DNA of 64,000 bases. Origin: Myxococcota bacterium (GTDB lineage: Bacteria > Myxococcota > XYA12-FULL-58-9 > JABJBS01). The stretch lies in the NCBI GenBank assembly GCA_036339465.1, contig JAYZAY010000061.1, forward strand, positions 16,489 to 80,488, in the 5' to 3' direction. The notes beneath the pieces are model-generated. The model was given only the letters and a program-made list of their open reading frames with translations, ran no database searches and was not told the origin of the DNA. A program made the translations under genes and the position numbers. Position 1 is the first letter of the stretch. Every line of letters begins with the position of its first letter. Positions 4,843 through 16,907 of this stretch are shown piece by piece.

Positions 4843-7723
4843 ATTCAACGTAATCAGACAAGGGCGGACAGCTACACACTAAGTTCCGGTCACCATAAAC
4901 ATTGTCAATTCGACCAACGGCTGGCCAAAACTTATGTTCCGTCGCCCATCCCCCCGGATACACAGCTTGTTGTCGAGAATAAGGATGATTCCACTCATCA
5001 ACTGTAAGGCAACGCGCAGTATGGGGTGCATTCTTGAGAACATTGTTCCCCACATCCACTTTTCCATCAACAACATCCTGGATCTCAGTCCGGATCGCCA
5101 AAAGTGCTTCACAGAATCTATCTAGCTCACGTTTTGATTCACTCTCAGTAGGCTCAACCATCATTGTGCCCGCAACAGGCCAGGAAATCGTCGGAGCATG
5201 GAAGCCGTAGTCCATCAATCTTTTCGCGATATCCTCAACTTCAACGCCTGCGGATTTATATTGTCGCAAATCCACAATAAATTCATGAGCAACCAAACCC
5301 TCATTTCCCGTAAACAAAATCTCATAGTCGCCTTCGAGCTTCTTCGCCATGTAGTTAGCGTTTAGAATCGCAACTTGGGAGGCTTTCTTTAGCCCGGTCC
5401 AGCCGAGCATCATGATATATGCCCAAGAAATAGGTAGAATAGCTGGGCTACCCCATGGAGCAGCGGATACCGCTCCCATGGCCTGCTCACCGCCAACTTT
5501 CTGCATGGGGTGACCCGGTAAAAACGGTCTCAGGTGTTGCGCAACGGCAATCGGTCCCATCCCGGGACCGCCTCCTCCATGGGGAATACAGAACGTTTTG
5601 TGTAAATTAAGGTGACAAACGTCTGCGCCATAATCACCTGGGCGACACAATCCAACCTGCGCATTCAAATTGGCACCATCTAGATACACTTGCCCCCCAT
5701 TCGCATGTATCGTTTCACAAATTTCGCGAATATGGGTTTCAAAGACCCCATGGGTCGATGGATATGTTATCATCGCTGCCGCGAGATTTTCAGAATGCTT
5801 CTCTGCCTTAGTCTGAAGATCCACCATGTCAATATTACCATCATCATCACACTTAACGACAACAACCTTCATCCCTGCCATCATCGCACTTGCCGGGTTC
5901 GTCCCATGGGCCGATTCCGGAATGATACAGACGTTGCGATACTCCTCCCCTCGACCACTATGATAAGCTTGAATCACCAGCATTCCCGCATACTCACCTT
6001 GCGAGCCTGCATTGGGCTGTAGCGCAACACCTGGTAATCCCGTGATCGTCGCCAACGATTCCTCAAGCTCTTCAAAAAGAAGATCATAACCTTTCGCTTG
6101 ATCCCGAGGCACACACGGGTGAAGGTTGGCAAATTCGGGCCAGGTAACCCCCAACATTTCCGTGGTCGCGTTCAACTTCATTGTGCACGAACCCAACGGA
6201 ATCATGGAATTTGCCAGCGATAAGTCCTTGCTTTGTAGTCGGTTCAGATACCGTAAAAACTCAGTCTCGGAATGATAATGGCCAAATACTTCCTGAGACA
6301 GGAAACCATCTGTACGACAAATTGACGATGATAATGGTTCCACTGTCGATTCTGGCGGACAACCTTTATCATCCCGACCAGCCATGGTCGAAAATAGATG
6401 GCTCAAACGGGTTAGTTCGCCCTCATCGGTTTTTTCATCCAATGTAATTCCGAAACTCCCCTCATCCAGCCTTCTTAAATTAAACCCGGCCTTTAAAGCA
6501 GCGGATATGACATCCGATACCTTCGTGCCTGCAATAGGCTCCACCGCCAATGTATCAAAGTATTCCACATTGCAAACCTTGAAGCCCAATCCCGCGAGAA
6601 GGCCTCTTAACCGGCCCGTATAAGACCGCACGGTATTCGCAATATTCTTTAACCGATCTGGGCCGTGATATACCGCATACATAGAAGCCATGATCGCCAA
6701 TAGTACCTGAGCAGTACAAATATTGCTGGTGGCTTTCTCTCTTCGAATATGTTGCTCGCGTGTTTGCAATGCCAAGCGCAAGGCTGGTCGACCAAATCGG
6801 TCTAAGGATTCACCCACAATACGTCCGGGTAGATTCCGTTTGAAACTATCTTTTGCAGCCATAAAGGCGGCATGAGGCCCCCCGTACCCAAGTGGGACAC
6901 CAAAACGCTGGGAGTTACCAACAGCGATATCCGCCCCCCATTTTCCTGGGGCTTCAAGGATCGTTAGCGCCAACAGATCTGTCGCAGCAATAACATAGGT
7001 CCCCTTGTCGGACGCGCCCTTGGCCAGGTCACGATAATCAAGAATCTCACCCCTCGTATCGGGATACTGGAGGACAATGGCCGTGTAATCAGCCTCTAGA
7101 TCTAGTTGACCAAGCTCACCAACCGTTAATTCGTACCCCAAAGGTTGGGCCCGGGTTTTCATCACCGCAAGTGTCTGGGGATGCAGCCTATTCGACAGAA
7201 AAAATCGGTGGGTTTTCGCGCTGCGGTTCATCCGAGTGCAAACCATCATGGCTTCGGCGGCTGCGGTGGCCTCATCAAGCATAGAACCATTCGCAATTTC
7301 GAGGCCCGTTAATTCACAAACCATGGTCTGAAAATTAAATAGCGCTTCCAAACGGCCTTGTGCAATCTCCGCTTGATAGGGAGTATACTGGGTGTACCAA
7401 CCTGGATTCTCTAAAATGTTGCGCTGAATAACCGCCGGAGTATTCGTATCATAATACCCCTGTCCCAAGAGGGAACGAACCAGTGTATTCTCTTTTGCGA
7501 TTTTCCCTAATCGCTCAATAACCGTTTGTTCTGTTTCGGGCTCCCGAAGTGAATACCCATCAGCTACCCGAATTGAATCCGGAACCACTGCCGCCGACAA
7601 TTCATCCAAAGTTTCGTAACCAATCGTATCCAACATAGATTGAATATCTTTTTGATTAGGGCCAAGATGCCGTTCTAAGAAAGGAATTCCATCAACAATC
7701 GTAGTACAACCTCGTTCCGCCAT
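4841..7723 (-). CDS. gcvP: Glycine dehydrogenase (decarboxylating), single-chain P protein
   Basis: 960 aa; [44 protein letters not shown] and the PLP-lysine motif [18 protein letters not shown]. Confidence 0.98.
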
Positions 7724-7903
7724 TAGACCGTCCTTTGATACGAGAATATAGACCCTCTGTGGGTACCTGCGTCAGAGAACCTAAAAGCCACTAACATAGG
7801 CCGTGGTCAGAATCAATCGAGCTCGGAAACCGCCACAGGCCCGTCGAGTGCTTGATGTTAATTTGGTTAAGGAGTCTTGGTTCAATCCGGGAGGGAAAAG
7901 AAA

Positions 7904-7933
7904 AAAAGATTCACACTGAAAAGATTCACGCTA
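7904..7933. repeat. Direct repeat AAAAGATTCAC x2 (15-bp period)
   Basis: AAAAGATTCACACTG followed immediately by AAAAGATTCACGCTA in the intergenic region upstream of gcvP. Confidence 0.55.
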
Positions 7934-8081
7934 AGAACAGGAAACTTGCGTGTTAGTTTTTCTCCAAACAAATTCTCTCACATAAAAGAGACCTCGTCGC
8001 TCCTACGGGTTTGGTTACCCGCACTCTCTGCTGGTTATTCGCATCTCTTTTGCCCCATGCTACTCGCGCGGATTACGCCGA

Positions 8082-8115
8082 CCGATACGTGTGGAGAGAG
8101 CTCCACGGGTATTGG
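8082..8115 (+). other. Stable RNA-like hairpin in intergenic region
   Basis: CCGATACGTGTGGAG-agag-CTCCACGGGTATTGG: 14 of 15 positions pair on the + strand, including two G-U pairs. Confidence 0.55.
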
Positions 8116-8547
8116 CTCTGAGTTAATTTCTAGACCTGCCCCGGTGTTCCTAATCAGGACGTTTATTTATCAGTATTTGGAGCACTTCGTCCCAAAAAGG
8201 TCACACGTGTGTTCAGGCCTTGGGGGGCTCGTGGCTGAGCGTCGCTGATGACAACTCAAGCGGACACATTACCTTCGATGGTCAAACCAGTCATGGTAGC
8301 GCCCATGGAACAGAACCAAGCCAGCACATGATGAACACATGGTTGATGGCGCAGGTTTCACGTTGGCCCAGGGGAGAAGCGATAAAAAATTCAGTAAGAT
8401 TAGAGCAATTCCTGAGTTGCTCAAGTTGCTGGATATTCGTCGGGCGTGGTGACTGGATGCCGTGAGATGTCAGCGCGCAATCGAAGAAAAAATGATGGAC
8501 GTGGTTGGGGCTATTTTTCGCAGGTGAAGGGTCACCAACTACAAATC

Positions 8548-10086
8548 TTAAACAATTCGGAAATGTTCACTCAGCGTACAACGTCGAGCACGCGAAAAAT
8601 CACGCGCGGTGGTAAGACCCTCACCGGTTGGACTGGCGATAGTGAAAGAGGTATAGCCTTCTCCTCCAAGCCCCAAACCAGCATAAAAAGGCGCATTCTT
8701 AATAAAAATAGAGGTATTAATCAGTCGAGCCATCATGTGAAGATGGTCTATATTTTTTGACCACATCCCTGCCGTATGACCGTTACCATGCTCACATCGA
8801 ACCGCCATCTCAATAGCCTCTCGTGCACTCGACACTCGAACCAATCCGGTCACAGGCATCAGAAGCTCCGATTGGATAAATGGGTGATTTTCAGGAACCT
8901 CGGCATAGGCAATAAGCGTTCCCTGGGGGGCCCGAATTCCAACTTTTCCGAGAATTTTTTGGATATCCTGCCCAACCCACTCCTTCACCGCGTGGCCCTC
9001 GTGAACCACCAATTTTTCAACCTTCGCTACTTCAAGAGGAGAAAGCTCGTAAGCACCGTTTCGATTTAGACTTTGCTTCAAATCATCGGCAATTGTCGCA
9101 ACTGCGATGATTTCCTTCTCAGCGGTACAAACAATATTGTTGTCCAAGGCAACACCTTTAACAATACCAGCCCCGGCCGCTTCAATATCGGCCGTCTCAT
9201 CAACAACAACGGGAGGATTTCCAGGACCACCAGCAATACACTTTTTCCCAGACACCAAAGCAGCCTTAACAACACCTGGTCCCCCAGTGACCACCAGAAG
9301 GCGAATCCCAGGATGAGTCATAAGTTGCTGTGCTGATTCAATCGTCGGTTCAGCTGTACAACACAGCAGATTGGCCGGACCACCAGCCCGAACAATAGCG
9401 TCATTGATAATCTGAACCGTGTATACACTGACCCGTTTCGCTGAAGGGTGCGCATTGAACACCACCGCATTGCCTGCGGCGATCATTCCAAGCCCATTAC
9501 AAATTATGGTCTCACTAGGATTCGTCGTGGGCGTGATTGCTCCAATAACACCGTAGGGAGCATATTCTTCAAGAGTGAGACCATCGTCACCACTTTTTGC
9601 CCAGGGCTCCAGGATTTCCGGACCGGGGGTCTTATCAATGACCAACCGGTTCTTTATTTGCTTCTGGTCAAACCGTCCCAAACCGGTCTCATCGACCGCC
9701 AGACGAGCTAACTCATCCACATGTTTTCGGCATTCGCGACGAATTTCATCCACAATCCGGTAACGGGCTCCCAAGCCAAGCCCCGAATAGCTCACAAAAG
9801 CCTCTCGAGCCGCAACGACAGCAGAATCTATATCAGAGAAAACTCCCCTACCAAGTTCTCCCCGACCATAATTTTGCCGCCGATTCGCAGAGTCCCCGGA
9901 GCGGGGACCACAACCATGGGGAGGATTTACCTGAGCGGGTGTGACCGACGATACAAGAGAACTTACCTGAGTGGGTGTGGCCGGCGATACAGAACGCCTT
10001 CCTAAGTTTCCAATACCGCCCTGATCGAGTCGTGAAACAACCCGCTCCACAATGGACGCAATCTTATCTTCAGACATGTACGGCAT
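8548..10086 (-). CDS. CoA-acylating aldehyde dehydrogenase (EutE/PduP family) with N-terminal BMC encapsulation peptide
   Basis: PYGVIGAITPTTNPSET, VVTGGPGVV, GGPGNPPVVVDETAD, catalytic DNNIVCTAEKE and FTIASPTGEG motifs. N-terminal amphipathic helix EDKIASIVERVVSRL followed by a low-complexity linker. Last gene of the BMC shell operon. Confidence 0.93.
   Translation of the reverse strand: MPYMSEDKIASIVERVVSRLDQGGIGNLGRRSVSPATPTQVSSLVSSVTPAQVNPPHGCGPRSGDSANRRQNYGRGELGRGVFSDIDSAVVAAREAFVSYSGLGLGARYRIVDEIRRECRKHVDELARLAVDETGLGRFDQKQIKNRLVIDKTPGPEILEPWAKSGDDGLTLEEYAPYGVIGAITPTTNPSETIICNGLGMIAAGNAVVFNAHPSAKRVSVYTVQIINDAIVRAGGPANLLCCTAEPTIESAQQLMTHPGIRLLVVTGGPGVVKAALVSGKKCIAGGPGNPPVVVDETADIEAAGAGIVKGVALDNNIVCTAEKEIIAVATIADDLKQSLNRNGAYELSPLEVAKVEKLVVHEGHAVKEWVGQDIQKILGKVGIRAPQGTLIAYAEVPENHPFIQSELLMPVTGLVRVSSAREAIEMAVRCEHGNGHTAGMWSKNIDHLHMMARLINTSIFIKNAPFYAGLGLGGEGYTSFTIASPTGEGLTTARDFSRARRCTLSEHFRIV
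9927..9991. repeat. Intragenic tandem duplication (29-bp copies, 36-bp period) in the aldehyde dehydrogenase linker
   Basis: ttacctgagcgggtgtgaccgacgataca (9927-9955) vs ttacctgagtgggtgtggccggcgataca (9963-9991), 3 mismatches; encodes VSPATPTQV / VSSVTPAQV. Confidence 0.8.
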
Positions 10087-10144
10087 GCCCTTAGGACTCC
10101 CTTTTAAACAACTCTAATGATCACAAAATCGAAATCAAAAGACA

Positions 10145-10444
10145 TCAACCATCGCCATCTTTACGATATGCTAACGCCCCGTTCTCCTCGACTAAATCAA
10201 CTATCGCCATAACAGTCGCATCCACTGGACGATTCTCTGTCACTTTCGTTTGACGTGCTGAACTTCCAGAGGCATACATAACAACGTCCCCTAGACCAGA
10301 ACCCACCGCATCAACCGCAACCACATACTTTCCAGTACCGGTCCCATTCGGCGACACCGCTTCAGCCAAAAGAAACTTGAGCCCTTCCAACTCCTCTTCC
10401 TTTTGACTCGCCACGACAGTTCCAACGACTCGAGCTAATAGCAA
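10145..10444 (-). CDS. BMC pentamer (vertex) protein, EutN/CcmL family (BMC-P)
   Basis: [15 protein letters not shown]...[14 protein letters not shown]...GSSAR...[11 protein letters not shown], a typical Pfam03319-type pattern. Confidence 0.95.
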
Positions 10445-10447
10445 GGA

Positions 10448-10741
10448 TTACTCTCCCGCGTTTGTATTACGCCCTAAGGGCAAAACACCGTCGATATTTT
10501 CATGGGGACGTGGAATGACATGAATGCTAATGAGCTCTCCAACCCGTTCAGCAGCCCGCCCACCTGCATCCGTTGCCGCTTTTACAGCCGCAACATCGCC
10601 ACGAACAATAGCAGTCACAAAACCACCACCGATCTTCTCATAGCCAACCAGCTCTACCCGAGCTGCCTTTACCATTGCGTCGGAAGCTTCCACCATTCCG
10701 ACAAAACCACGTGTTTCAATCATCCCTAATGCATCAGCCAT
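10448..10741 (-). CDS. BMC hexamer shell protein (BMC-H, EutM/PduA/CcmK family)
   Basis: [24 protein letters not shown]...[10 protein letters not shown]...HVIPRPH; single BMC domain. Confidence 0.97.
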
Positions 10742-10786
10742 CACAAAACCTCTCTATATAGCAGTCTTAATTCGACACAACTCAAA

Positions 10787-11416
10787 CTATCTTTTTGGTA
10801 ACGGTTGCCCAGTGATCGAATTCAATGCGGAATTTGCTGCCTCCGCAGCCGCATCAATCTCCGCTTCAGCCCCCCCCATATACAAGCGACCAAATGCCCC
10901 AAAACTTTGACATTCCAACAACCGAACATTCGCAGCTTTTTCGGCCTCATTCGCAGCCAAAGAGATATAGGCTGCAGGTTCCGATTCAATGATCAATAAC
11001 GACTCACCTGGTGTAATCATCGATCCATATCGAATCTTGTTTACACACTGAGCATGGTCGGGTTCGATCGACCTGATGATCTCGTTTGTCACAATCCTTG
11101 GCTGCAATCGGTCCTGCTCCTTGTACCCTAATGCATCAAGGATAGCCTCACCAGCAGCCAACACCTCACCTTTATCGTGACTGTGAAGCATCACCATCCC
11201 AAATGCTCGCTCCACAACGATAGTAGCGGGGTGAACTTGAGTCCCCTTTAATGCTCGGTCAAGAAGCTTATGGATGGCCATACCTGGCGCAATTTCGATA
11301 TAAAGAGCCGCCTCGTAAGGAACGGGCCAAAATCCACGACACGTCGAACAGACGTGAGCCGTTAGCTGAGGTTGAAGAGAATCAAGGAAAACATATGTTC
11401 TCAGAGATACACCCAT
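10787..11416 (-). CDS. BMC tandem-domain trimer shell protein (BMC-T, permuted double-stacking CsoS1D/CcmP-like type)
   Basis: LRTYVFLDSLQPQL, EIAPGMAI, VVERAFG, AANEAEKAANV and GAFGRLYM motifs, characteristic of permuted tandem BMC proteins. Confidence 0.93.
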   Translation of the reverse strand: MGVSLRTYVFLDSLQPQLTAHVCSTCRGFWPVPYEAALYIEIAPGMAIHKLLDRALKGTQVHPATIVVERAFGMVMLHSHDKGEVLAAGEAILDALGYKEQDRLQPRIVTNEIIRSIEPDHAQCVNKIRYGSMITPGESLLIIESEPAAYISLAANEAEKAANVRLLECQSFGAFGRLYMGGAEAEIDAAAEAANSALNSITGQPLPKR

Positions 11417-11638
11417 TCTTATTTCCTATTACTAATTGTCCGTTACTTGCTGCCCGATTCGCAATAACAGGGACCAGGTGGCCGGCGTATAACGCAGGCC
11501 ATAGCCAACTACAACCCGTTACGGGGTAATATTTAGCGAAAAGCCCCCGGTTGATTACATTCGGAAAACACACCATTGCCTAACAATATTGTGTGTCGTA
11601 CAAGCCTCTTAGACTGAAAGACTGGGGGGGAATTAATA

Positions 11639-12457
11639 ATGCAAAAACTGTGTATCGTTTGGCTATCACTTGTTCTTTCCGTGGCGATGGGCGGCTGTGC
11701 AACAAGCCAAGTCGCGCAAAAAGCACCTGGGGATTCCATTCAAGTCAAGATTGAACCACAAGTTAAGGCCACCTATGAAAAATTGGTATTCTCAATTTCG
11801 TACTATGCCTCCGCTAAGGTCTTGAAACCATCAACCCTAACAACGGTAACCCTCACGTTCAACGAGGGGACAGAGAACGAATTTAGTACGAACTTAGCCG
11901 TCAACAAAATAATCCCCAGTCAGGACACTCTAAAAGGTCTACTCAACGTTGAACGCTTGATTACACCCATTAGTTTCGAGCTACTTGAAAACGACGGCGT
12001 TAGGCGGTTCACCGTTAATGCCGTGTTTAGTTTTGAAACCAATGGACAGACCACTACTTACAGTACCGCCGGTTACGGCGAGTACCTGCAACCTGTTCGA
12101 CCTAGAATCACCGCCACCGCTAGTGCCGCCAGATTCGAAGGTAAATCGTACGAGTTGACAATCACGATTAATTTAGAGAATCCAAATCCCTTTCCCCTAC
12201 AAATGGGCTCGTTGGACTATAAACTCGTTCTTGGAGACGCCGAGCTTCAGACCGGGAAATTATACGAAAACCTGAAGGTTTCGCCAGGCAGCATAGAAAA
12301 GTTTGACCTAAATGAATCAATCAGCGCAGCCAGCCACGCGGAACTCTTAAGAACCTTGTCGGGCCAAAACAGCGTTCCATATCTAGTTCAAGCCATCATT
12401 AACATTGGCTCATCCAGTTATCCCGCGGACATTAACGGAACCATGGATTTCAAATAA
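11639..12457 (+). CDS. Lipoprotein with LEA_2/WHy-like domain
   Basis: Signal peptide ending in a lipobox (AMGG-C); C-terminal half has the LxNPNPFPL..LDYKL LEA_2 signature. Confidence 0.75.
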   Translation: MQKLCIVWLSLVLSVAMGGCATSQVAQKAPGDSIQVKIEPQVKATYEKLVFSISYYASAKVLKPSTLTTVTLTFNEGTENEFSTNLAVNKIIPSQDTLKGLLNVERLITPISFELLENDGVRRFTVNAVFSFETNGQTTTYSTAGYGEYLQPVRPRITATASAARFEGKSYELTITINLENPNPFPLQMGSLDYKLVLGDAELQTGKLYENLKVSPGSIEKFDLNESISAASHAELLRTLSGQNSVPYLVQAIINIGSSSYPADINGTMDFK

Positions 12458-12472: not shown

Positions 12473-12670
12473 TTAAGGTCCGTCAATACTCGCCGGCTCG
12501 AAGAAGTCCGTAGAGCTTGGCATTTTCTTCAAGTCCGGTAACGCAACCTTCCACGCCCTCTGAATCAGCCAACTCAACGACCGATCTAGTCTGCGCGCTT
12601 CCTCTTGTAGTTCACTCAGCATCTCATGTGGAAAATAAAGAGCCTGGCGACAGGATTTTTCACCAGTCAC
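12473..12670 (-). CDS. Small MXAN_4361/MXAN_4362-like protein (TIGR04563-type, ribbon-helix-helix-like)
   Basis: RQALYFPHEMLSELQEEARRLDRSLSWLIQRAWKVA; paralog of the adjacent gene, with a 4-bp start/stop overlap. Confidence 0.85.
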   Translation of the reverse strand: MTGEKSCRQALYFPHEMLSELQEEARRLDRSLSWLIQRAWKVALPDLKKMPSSTDFFEPASIDGP

Positions 12671-15527: not shown

Positions 15528-16907
15528 TTATTCTCCAATTTTCCTGTAAATCGTACGCAGTCCCATCTTCAATAGCGTCGCGGTCAACCGCTTATCACCG
15601 TCAGTTTTACTTAACGTGTAATGAATAACCCTTTGTTCGACATCCTCCATAGGAATCCCAAACGGGATCCACACACCCTCACCTTGAGGCTCGCCACAAT
15701 TGTCACCTTCCGATTGTCGGAGCGAAGGCGGCAAATCCATAAATTCGATAATATTGCCCCTCGCCAACACCACAGCCCTTTCAATAACATTTTCTAATTC
15801 TCTGACGTTCCCGGGCCAGGCGTAATTGTCCAGAGTTTTCATCGCATCGTCTGTATAACCTTCAATACTCTTGTTGTTTTTCGCACAAAACTTAGTCAAA
15901 AAATGTTGTGCAAGAATCGCCACATCTCCCACTCGATCGCATAACGATGGAAGTTCCAATTGAATAACGTTTAGACGGTAATAAAGGTCCTCTCGAAATA
16001 GGCCTACCTTGACCATCTCATCAAGGTTCCTATTGGTGGCAGCCACAATCCTCGCATCAACCGGAATGATCTTGTCCCCCCCCAACCGCTCAATTTCCTG
16101 TTCTTGAAGTGCCCTCAATAGCCGCGCCTGTAACGGCAGGGCCAATTCAGTTATCTCATCCAAGAATAACGTCCCCCTGTTGGCCCGTTCAAAGCGACCT
16201 TCTCTCCGACTTGTCGCTCCAGTAAAAGCCCCTTTCTCGTGCCCAAAAAGCTCACTCTCGAGTAGGGTTTCCGGTAAAGCAGCGCAGTTGATAGCAACGA
16301 AAGGGCCGGCCGCCCTTTCCGATGAATCGTGAATCTGTTGCGCACAAAGTTCTTTGCCGGTTCCACTTTGACCTGTAATCAAAATAGTCGCGTCTGACGG
16401 GGCCGCCTGTTCAATTGTTTCCAAAACGTGTCGGATGGGGTTCGATTGTCCAACAATCCGCGTATGACCAAAAGCCTGTGTCTCTCGCCTAAGCCGCAGA
16501 TTTTCGAGTAACAGTGTACGTCTCTCTAGCGTCCGCAAGACAGACCGAACTACGATGGCCCTTTTAAGAGGCTTTGTAATAAAATCGTAGGCTCCAGCTT
16601 TCATACATTCGACGGCATTGTCGACCGTACCAAAGGCTGTCATAACAATAACTTCAATTGCTGGAGACAACGCCTTGACGGCTCGGATTAACTCGATGCC
16701 ATTCATCTTTGGCATCATAATATCCGTGAGTACGACACCAATAGATTCATCAGCTCTAATTAATTCAATCGCCGTTACTCCAGATGGCGTTGTCGTCACC
16801 CGGAAACCCTCTCGCTGAAAAATTTTCTCTAATGAAACCAGGATCCCTAGTTCATCGTCCACCACTAAAACGTGGGCTTGTTCCGTCATTGTCGTCTGCT
16901 CTTCCAT
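15528..16907 (-). CDS. Sigma54-dependent response regulator (NtrC family: REC, AAA+, Fis HTH)
   Basis: REC domain VLVVDDE...LTDIMMP; Walker A GQSGTGKE; ESELFGHEKGAFTGA; WPGNVRELEN; C-terminal HTH. Confidence 0.95.
   Translation of the reverse strand: MEEQTTMTEQAHVLVVDDELGILVSLEKIFQREGFRVTTTPSGVTAIELIRADESIGVVLTDIMMPKMNGIELIRAVKALSPAIEVIVMTAFGTVDNAVECMKAGAYDFITKPLKRAIVVRSVLRTLERRTLLLENLRLRRETQAFGHTRIVGQSNPIRHVLETIEQAAPSDATILITGQSGTGKELCAQQIHDSSERAAGPFVAINCAALPETLLESELFGHEKGAFTGATSRREGRFERANRGTLFLDEITELALPLQARLLRALQEQEIERLGGDKIIPVDARIVAATNRNLDEMVKVGLFREDLYYRLNVIQLELPSLCDRVGDVAILAQHFLTKFCAKNNKSIEGYTDDAMKTLDNYAWPGNVRELENVIERAVVLARGNIIEFMDLPPSLRQSEGDNCGEPQGEGVWIPFGIPMEDVEQRVIHYTLSKTDGDKRLTATLLKMGLRTIYRKIGE

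Follow-up and report, generated by a model that had tools for sequence, protein, structure and literature searches.

A split Haliangium ochraceum-type microcompartment in a Myxococcota bacterium and its likely link to deoxyribose-5-phosphate

What is the task of a microcompartment operon that encodes shell proteins and an aldehyde dehydrogenase, but no enzyme from which the aldehyde could come? This question is raised by four genes in a stretch of 64,000 nucleotides (the window) from a Myxococcota bacterium, positions 16,489 to 80,488 of contig JAYZAY010000061.1 (here C61) of the assembly GCA_036339465.1, which comprises 4.17 Mb and is 92.8% complete. Our analysis leads us to propose, with a probability of about 0.65, that these genes form the main operon of a split bacterial microcompartment (BMC) resembling type I of the Haliangium ochraceum (HO) class, and that this compartment is likely a deoxyribose-5-phosphate metabolosome similar to those of the sugar-phosphate-utilizing (SPU) types. 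In such an organelle the aldolase DeoC would cleave deoxyribose-5-phosphate to acetaldehyde, the acylating dehydrogenase would turn acetaldehyde into acetyl-CoA, and the sugar of degraded DNA would be the ultimate input. DeoC, encoded in a satellite locus with BMC-P genes, would be loaded as cargo via its N-terminal extension, and a class II aldolase from the same satellite is probably a second cargo.

The window operon and its satellite loci

A preliminary description of this DNA, made from the sequence alone, had recognized four tightly spaced minus-strand genes for a trimer, a hexamer and a pentamer of the shell and for a dehydrogenase of the EutE/PduP type. Open reading frames (ORFs) together with Pfam and NCBIfam matches confirmed this arrangement:

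10787..11416, minus strand: BMC-Tdp shell trimer, first gene of the operon; 209 aa; PF00936; best PDB match 5v74/6n07 (HO-5816), E 5.8e-73
10448..10744, minus strand: BMC-H shell hexamer; PF00936; best natural PDB match 5djb (HO-5815), E 1.5e-45
10145..10444, minus strand: BMC-P vertex pentamer; 99 aa, TTG start; PF03319; best PDB match 5v74_A1 (HO shell pentamer), E 2.3e-35
8548..10086, minus strand: acylating (CoA-dependent) aldehyde dehydrogenase, EutE/PduP type; 512 aa; NF011927, 622.5 bits (cut-off 403)
10021..10065, minus strand: amphipathic dehydrogenase residues 8-22, a predicted encapsulation peptide; counterpart in the alignment: N-terminus of 5jfl
9127..9129, minus strand: codon for dehydrogenase Cys320, the likely catalytic residue; aligns with the modified cysteine in 5jfn

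In the order Tdp-H-P-dehydrogenase, the genes are separated by 42, 3 and 58 nt. The BMC-H frame measures 98 aa when counted from GTG; translation probably begins at the in-frame ATG at 10741. The likeness to H. ochraceum suspected before was borne out, with an H. ochraceum protein as the best natural PDB match of each of the three shell proteins; the matches that follow HO-5816 in the case of BMC-Tdp are of the CcmP and CsoS1D types. The dehydrogenase has its best PDB matches in 5jfl (E ~1e-134) and 4c3s (E ~1e-129), and the encapsulation peptide ascribed to it is likewise predicted here, with a hydrophobic moment of 0.70 for residues 8-22 (protein mean 0.27, standard deviation 0.14). A Pfam scan of 26 chosen ORFs between window positions 1 and 25,289 found no lyase, aldolase or other aldehyde-forming enzyme, no alcohol dehydrogenase and no phosphotransacylase (PTAC) near the operon, as had been stated; positions 25,290-64,000 were covered by whole-genome single-family searches only.

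Beyond the window the picture is different. Searching the genome for PF00936 and PF03319 revealed three more shell genes, so that it encodes six shell proteins: one BMC-H, one BMC-Tdp, one BMC-Ts and three BMC-P, of which one belongs to the main operon on C61 and two lie on contig C74. The BMC-H of the window is the only single-domain BMC-H found. Directly behind the BMC-P pair on C74 lie a class II aldolase and DeoC. The features of the two satellite loci (coordinates of genome G000, this assembly) are as follows:

C9:19814-20407: lone BMC-Ts, tandem, PduT-like, single-layer type; two PF00936 domains
C74:31826-34024, one strand: satellite cluster BMC-P, BMC-P, class II aldolase, DeoC; gaps <30 nt
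G000:C74:32413-33096 (L009:10414-11097): class II aldolase; pfam00596
C74:33101-34024: DeoC; PF01791
G000:C74:33101-33334 (L009:11102-11335): DeoC extension, ~78 N-terminal residues, with a four-cysteine stretch

The four genes on C74 form one apparent operon. DeoC passes the deoC equivalog with 262.9 bits (cut-off 117.3) and is the sole PF01791 match in the genome. Thus the lack of a signature enzyme is true of the window only, since the genome holds two candidate aldehyde-forming aldolases; the additional BMC-T whose absence had been remarked upon is indeed not in the window, but sits on contig C9; and the notion of a stripped-down organelle of three shell proteins finds no support, whereas the guess that cargo might be loaded from satellite loci was right.

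In relatives, the same genes recur in both scattered and united form. Our phylum sample comprised 301 genomes; one of them, the unpublished G184, is included in the counts and contributes one of the 30 loci mentioned below. A BMC-H match was obtained in 115 of them, 101 being of the HO type (>=76% identity) and 14 belonging to family f9. The gene order Tdp-H-P-dehydrogenase recurs in all of the 30 best related loci. In the order to which this bacterium belongs, Tdp is present in 16 of 20 genomes, and exactly these 16 have BMC-Ts, on another contig; all but one of the 16 shell-bearing genomes have only one Tdp. BMC-Ts follows the dehydrogenase in other lineages (L113, L116, L119, L130), and 21 of the 80 best aldolase loci show a single long operon that includes the dehydrogenase. 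Because other lineages hold these genes in one operon and Ts co-occurs with Tdp, we conclude that the window operon belongs to a larger system whose genes are often split. These data bear also on the proposal that the four genes by themselves build an entire minimal organelle, made of one H, one T, one P and one enzyme, which would scavenge cytosolic aldehydes. They do form a tight unit, conserved in 30/30 best loci, and three HO proteins (H, T1 and P) can assemble into a shell, although T1 is of the Ts type (PMC10853475); the preliminary description had taken one H, one T and one P as about the least needed for a closed shell. Given three further shell genes and two aldolases in the genome, the lone BMC-Ts accompanying Tdp in precisely the same 16 genomes, and the united operons of other lineages, a self-sufficient four-gene organelle is highly improbable.

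The N-terminal extension of DeoC and the presence of a shell

The residues expected for catalysis by DeoC, Asp165, Lys227 and Lys256, are all present and are invariant in the 27 aligned homologues; they correspond to residues of the SPU6 deoxyribose-5-phosphate aldolase (DERA), which is active on deoxyribose-5-phosphate after removal of its 70-residue extension (Dwyer et al., 2024; PMC11585597). The extension of DeoC was modelled by AlphaFold2 as a helix (residues 2-23), a cysteine stretch of low confidence (24-43) and a short helix-strand, this last part being a short copy that resembles the final helix-strand of the barrel. The helix resembles an encapsulation peptide. The extension is conserved across lineages, its four-cysteine/barrel-like segment being absent in G059, G074, G257 and family f17, although the DeoC of G257 does have the helix.

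The association between this helix and the shell was examined with a score table built from 21 sequences (19 from shell-bearing genomes) and run directly on the DeoC N-termini of hand-picked loci; four loci were dropped as their anchor motif was unmatched, and one further training genome was excluded. With thresholds that were compared after the fact and a shell-less set that includes known exceptions, the helix scored >=12 bits in 26 of 29 shell-bearing and in 3 of 50 shell-less sampled Myxococcota genomes, and >=8 bits in 28 of 29 and 7 of 50, respectively. We claim no probability for this association because kin are not independent samples. A first co-occurrence count based on alignment starts and a hidden Markov model (108/115 against 4/186) was set aside as too favourable and replaced by the direct test of N-termini, since 134 DeoC sequences were missing from the list behind it and some N-termini, e.g. 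that of G257, had been misjudged from the points where their alignments began.

Within genus g38, helix and cysteines are kept in both shell-bearing genomes examined and are missing from all four shell-less ones. In G223 (L128), a zinc-ribbon gene precedes the P-P-aldolase genes; in G171 (L129), the same zinc-ribbon gene lies near deoC, there is no aldolase or BMC-H match, and DeoC lacks both the helix and the cysteines. The comparison of G223 with G171 is a natural loss experiment. A different arrangement was seen in the DeoC proteins of G261 (L133:4360-5328) and G263 (L176), two genomes with no BMC-H match, in which an Asp-rich tract containing 10-12 cysteines comes after the helix.

A second line of evidence for DeoC as cargo is the position of its gene. 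Fifteen genomes of the own order have the class II aldolase, and in 13 of these DeoC follows directly after it; in one of the remaining two it lies 7 kb further on, and in the other the contig end cuts the locus. Among the 95 HO-type genomes in which both positions are known, the distance between DeoC and the aldolase is <=1.5 kb in 25 and <=10 kb in 40, spread over five or more lineages; without G184, the latter count shifts only from 40/95 to 39/94. In four relatives that were examined, the cluster of BMC-P, BMC-P, aldolase and DeoC runs on into thymidine phosphorylase in three (L102, L103, L118), with a purine nucleoside phosphorylase gene added in L118, and into a gene of the phosphohexomutase family in the fourth (L104). 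All 19 relatives within the order have thymidine phosphorylase, and all but one of them (18) have the mutase. In this genome it is an RlmB-like methyltransferase gene that follows deoC, and in 11 of the 80 loci (L207-L221, own order) one gene recurs after deoC, which from its sequence we take to be glycerophosphodiester-phosphodiesterase-like.

Substrate supply and the role of the class II aldolase

Several observations weigh against a deoxyribose-5-phosphate metabolosome. The helix of DeoC is only modestly amphipathic, with a hydrophobic moment of 0.40 (mean 0.23, standard deviation 0.12). DeoC is found in 283 of the 301 phylum genomes and thus is near universal, so that its presence alone means nothing. 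Decayed helices persist in several shell-less Myxococcaceae-like genomes, which appear among the 7/50 at >=8 bits; those of the shell-less family f16 genomes lack the cysteines and would fit a loss of the shell followed by decay of the helix. G092 keeps its shell although its DeoC has no extension. Two BMC-P genes stand beside the class II aldolase in 71 of the 80 best loci, but DeoC in only 12, and DeoC occurs in none of the 21 loci in which aldolase and dehydrogenase share an operon. Furthermore, thymidine phosphorylase (deoA), DeoB, the DeoC-linked mutase and purine nucleoside phosphorylase were not found in the 92.8%-complete assembly, whose only PF01048 match is MTAP-like. The simplest reading of this absence is one missing contig, which is likely because a single contig carries both deoA and the mutase in G059, and likewise in G069; true loss is the alternative.

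The compartment might instead be a detoxifying sink, in which DeoC would clear the deoxyribose-5-phosphate that DNA repair and turnover release within the cell, while the dehydrogenase would trap the resulting aldehyde and other stray short ones. The lack from the assembly of the supply genes for outside deoxynucleosides (deoA, phosphopentomutase) would suit such a function, as would the lack of a PTAC, a linked alcohol dehydrogenase, a transporter or a regulator supporting high flux. We nevertheless consider a sink improbable, given that nearly all relatives possess the supply genes (19/19 and 18/19), linked to the satellite in some.

A more serious competitor is the class II aldolase itself. 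It could be the true signature enzyme, splitting a ketose-1-phosphate (of the fuculose-, rhamnulose-, ribulose- or 5-deoxyribulose-1-phosphate type) into dihydroxyacetone phosphate and a short aldehyde for the dehydrogenase, with DeoC as optional extra cargo. The aldolase's constant place beside the BMC-P pair, inside the full operon in the 21 loci with the dehydrogenase, speaks for this, as do the metal and acid-base residues Glu77, His96 and His98, invariant in 26/26 sequences, a helix-like C-terminal tail on the aldolase of several relatives (L017, L020, L021, L024, L034), and the retention of the aldolase by G092 next to a DeoC without extension. The known routes to such a substrate find little backing. 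Fucose isomerase (PF02952) is encoded in 0/20 genomes of the order and RhaA (PF06134) in 0/5 genomes, leaving the fucose and rhamnose routes unsupported, and GlpK is the only FGGY kinase in this genome. A structural match, 6btd, brought 5-deoxyribulose-1-phosphate into consideration, through what we assume to be a link of that protein to the 5-deoxyribulose-1-phosphate pathway. Both this route and that via ribulose-1-phosphate are weakened because MtnA is patchy: only 11 of the order's 20 genomes have it, and family f5, whose four genomes all have shell and aldolase, lacks it altogether. The aldolase passes no NCBIfam equivalog, that of this genome bears no clear targeting tail, and clustering of the neighbours recurring in the 80 aldolase loci gave no substrate clue. 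An organelle built around the class II aldolase with DeoC as an accessory therefore appears rather unlikely to us. Named relatives of the aldolase are mostly from metagenome-assembled genomes of Myxococcota. Its Phe75 is invariant (26/26); at this position, immediately preceding the catalytic Glu, FucA-type enzymes have a Ser in the alignment, and the replacement hints at a substrate different from that of the FucA types.

Both aldolases may, however, serve the compartment together. In this extended version of the deoxyribose-5-phosphate metabolosome, which we put forward tentatively, the HO-type compartment would be a two-aldolase organelle burning the nucleic-acid sugars of prey or detritus: the peptide-tagged DeoC, with its four-cysteine and possibly metal-binding module, would feed acetaldehyde from DNA, and the class II aldolase subfamily would supply another aldehyde through a hitherto undescribed reaction. 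Complex prediction for DeoC and the class II aldolase returned a score of 0.00, which we count neither for nor against.

Other enzymes typical of microcompartments were sought with little result. EutB (PF06751) of ethanolamine ammonia-lyase was not found in the 92.8%-complete genome, so that an ethanolamine module was discarded, and no PTAC was found in the genome either. The ORFs scanned around the three shell loci included no diol dehydratase or glycyl radical enzyme of the PDU or GRM types, no whole-genome family search having been made for these. The iron-containing alcohol dehydrogenase exists in a single copy without obvious extension in an unrelated cluster on C51. RpiB (PF02502; 146 aa, single copy) lies beside a glyA-like gene, unlinked to the shell loci, and leaves no room for a peptide. 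A second gene of the class II aldolase family, on C62, looks like MtnB of methionine salvage as judged by the sequences of its neighbours only.

The main operon itself is flanked by gcvP and a gene for a LEA_2-domain protein. A sigma-54 response regulator is encoded at a distance of 4 kb, without any hint of a connection, and a small protein of the TIGR04563 family (above cut-off) at window 12473-12670, ~1 kb upstream, with no link shown. A promoter and terminator scan of 7700-11700 gave nothing exceeding shuffles, and Rfam no match. The non-coding window stretch 7836-7975, downstream of the dehydrogenase gene, resembles G000:C74:31476-31630 (L009:9477-9631; 68.6% identity over 156 nt, E 5e-10), located just upstream of the BMC-P/aldolase/DeoC satellite. 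Since five other contigs contain portions of the C74 stretch, this is likely a decayed low-copy repeat that happens to be present at both shell loci. Apart from this repeat, no motif common to the upstream regions of the three shell loci was found.

Relation to known microcompartment types and implications

The HO type was defined from 41 loci by Sutter et al. (2021; PMC8217296), in whose catalogue the function of the type "remains enigmatic", and H. ochraceum had been listed earlier among the loci with an incomplete core (Axen et al., 2014). According to its supplement, the main locus of HO type I comprises shell proteins and an aldehyde dehydrogenase, and in 24 of 30 HO type I loci a pfam00596 aldolase lies on a satellite with two BMC-P (PMC8217296). 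The present system agrees with this layout in its main locus, which holds only shell proteins and an N-terminally extended dehydrogenase (its peptide being predicted), in its single BMC-H of the HO type and its one BMC-Ts, in having HO proteins as best PDB matches, in the BMC-P triplet split into one plus two, and in the pfam00596 aldolase on the satellite with two BMC-P. It departs from it in three respects: there is one BMC-Tdp, whereas the combined HO type I shell set has two; the BMC-Ts is a lone satellite and does not follow the dehydrogenase as in the lineages named above; and the extended DeoC is part of the BMC-P satellite, while the catalogue describes DeoC "in a different genomic location" in some genomes (PMC8217296). 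The same paper already floated deoxyribose as an idea for the HO type and placed the HO dehydrogenase next to those of SPU5 and SPU7.

Among the SPU types SPU5 is nearest. Shared features are a DeoC/DERA with a ~70-80-residue N-terminal extension and the same catalytic triad, an acylating dehydrogenase, the BMC-P triplet, BMC-Tdp, a class II aldolase and, for SPU5, the lack of RpiB. Unlike in SPU operons, the genes are split here over three loci, with DERA on a satellite rather than on the main locus, and none of these loci contains RpiB, triose-phosphate isomerase (TPI), PTAC or PduS. Complete single-locus SPU-type operons do occur in another family of the phylum, f9 (L100, L101), where an extended DeoC of ~480 aa is accompanied by RpiB and a PduS-like protein, as well as by TPI in L100 and PTAC in L101. 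These loci resemble the Myxococcota type that has been discussed as donor of Asgard archaeal microcompartments, in a paper covering the single-locus SPU operons of deep Myxococcota (PMC12747264). Like the present system, the PVM type (class II aldolase, fucose/rhamnose) combines BMC-P genes and an acylating dehydrogenase with a pfam00596 aldolase; it differs by the fucose or rhamnose isomerase and the sugar kinase, which were not found here as detailed above, and the aldolase here is only distantly related to FucA (E ~1e-18). The EUT (ethanolamine utilization) type differs by EutB. Overall, the system is a modest variant of HO type I, filed as such because it has one Tdp instead of two; it is built like HO type I and, on our reading, works like an SPU metabolosome.

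A further case is G092 (~0.6 Mb, 87% complete; L105, L106, L136), which keeps Tdp-H-P-dehydrogenase together with the P-P-aldolase satellite, the dehydrogenase (443 aa) having no N-terminal extension. A microcompartment in a genome as reduced as this is surprising.

Work on the structure and engineering of microcompartments has the HO shell as its main model, although the natural function of this shell has been called enigmatic (PMC8217296). The window operon is ordinary for the HO type, and its layout has already been published. The contribution of this genome is a physical linkage: the gene for the peptide-bearing DeoC shares an apparent operon with two shell genes, and the peptide follows the presence of a shell across the sampled phylum. 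No publication on native HO cargo or on DeoC within an HO satellite was found among those outside subscription, and the linkage may already be visible in two large supplementary archives of the catalogue; the text of the SPU6 study (PMC11585597) does not mention HO, Haliangium or myxobacteria. By the present work, a passing published suggestion becomes a two-enzyme hypothesis that is testable with the existing HO shell systems. HO-type microcompartments occur in about a third of the sampled Myxococcota species, and if our reading is true, many myxobacterial lineages would possess an organelle for the recycling of DNA sugar. Should the two-aldolase version prove true as well, a lineage that keeps both aldolases in an operon with shell genes would thereby reveal the native cargo of the model shell.

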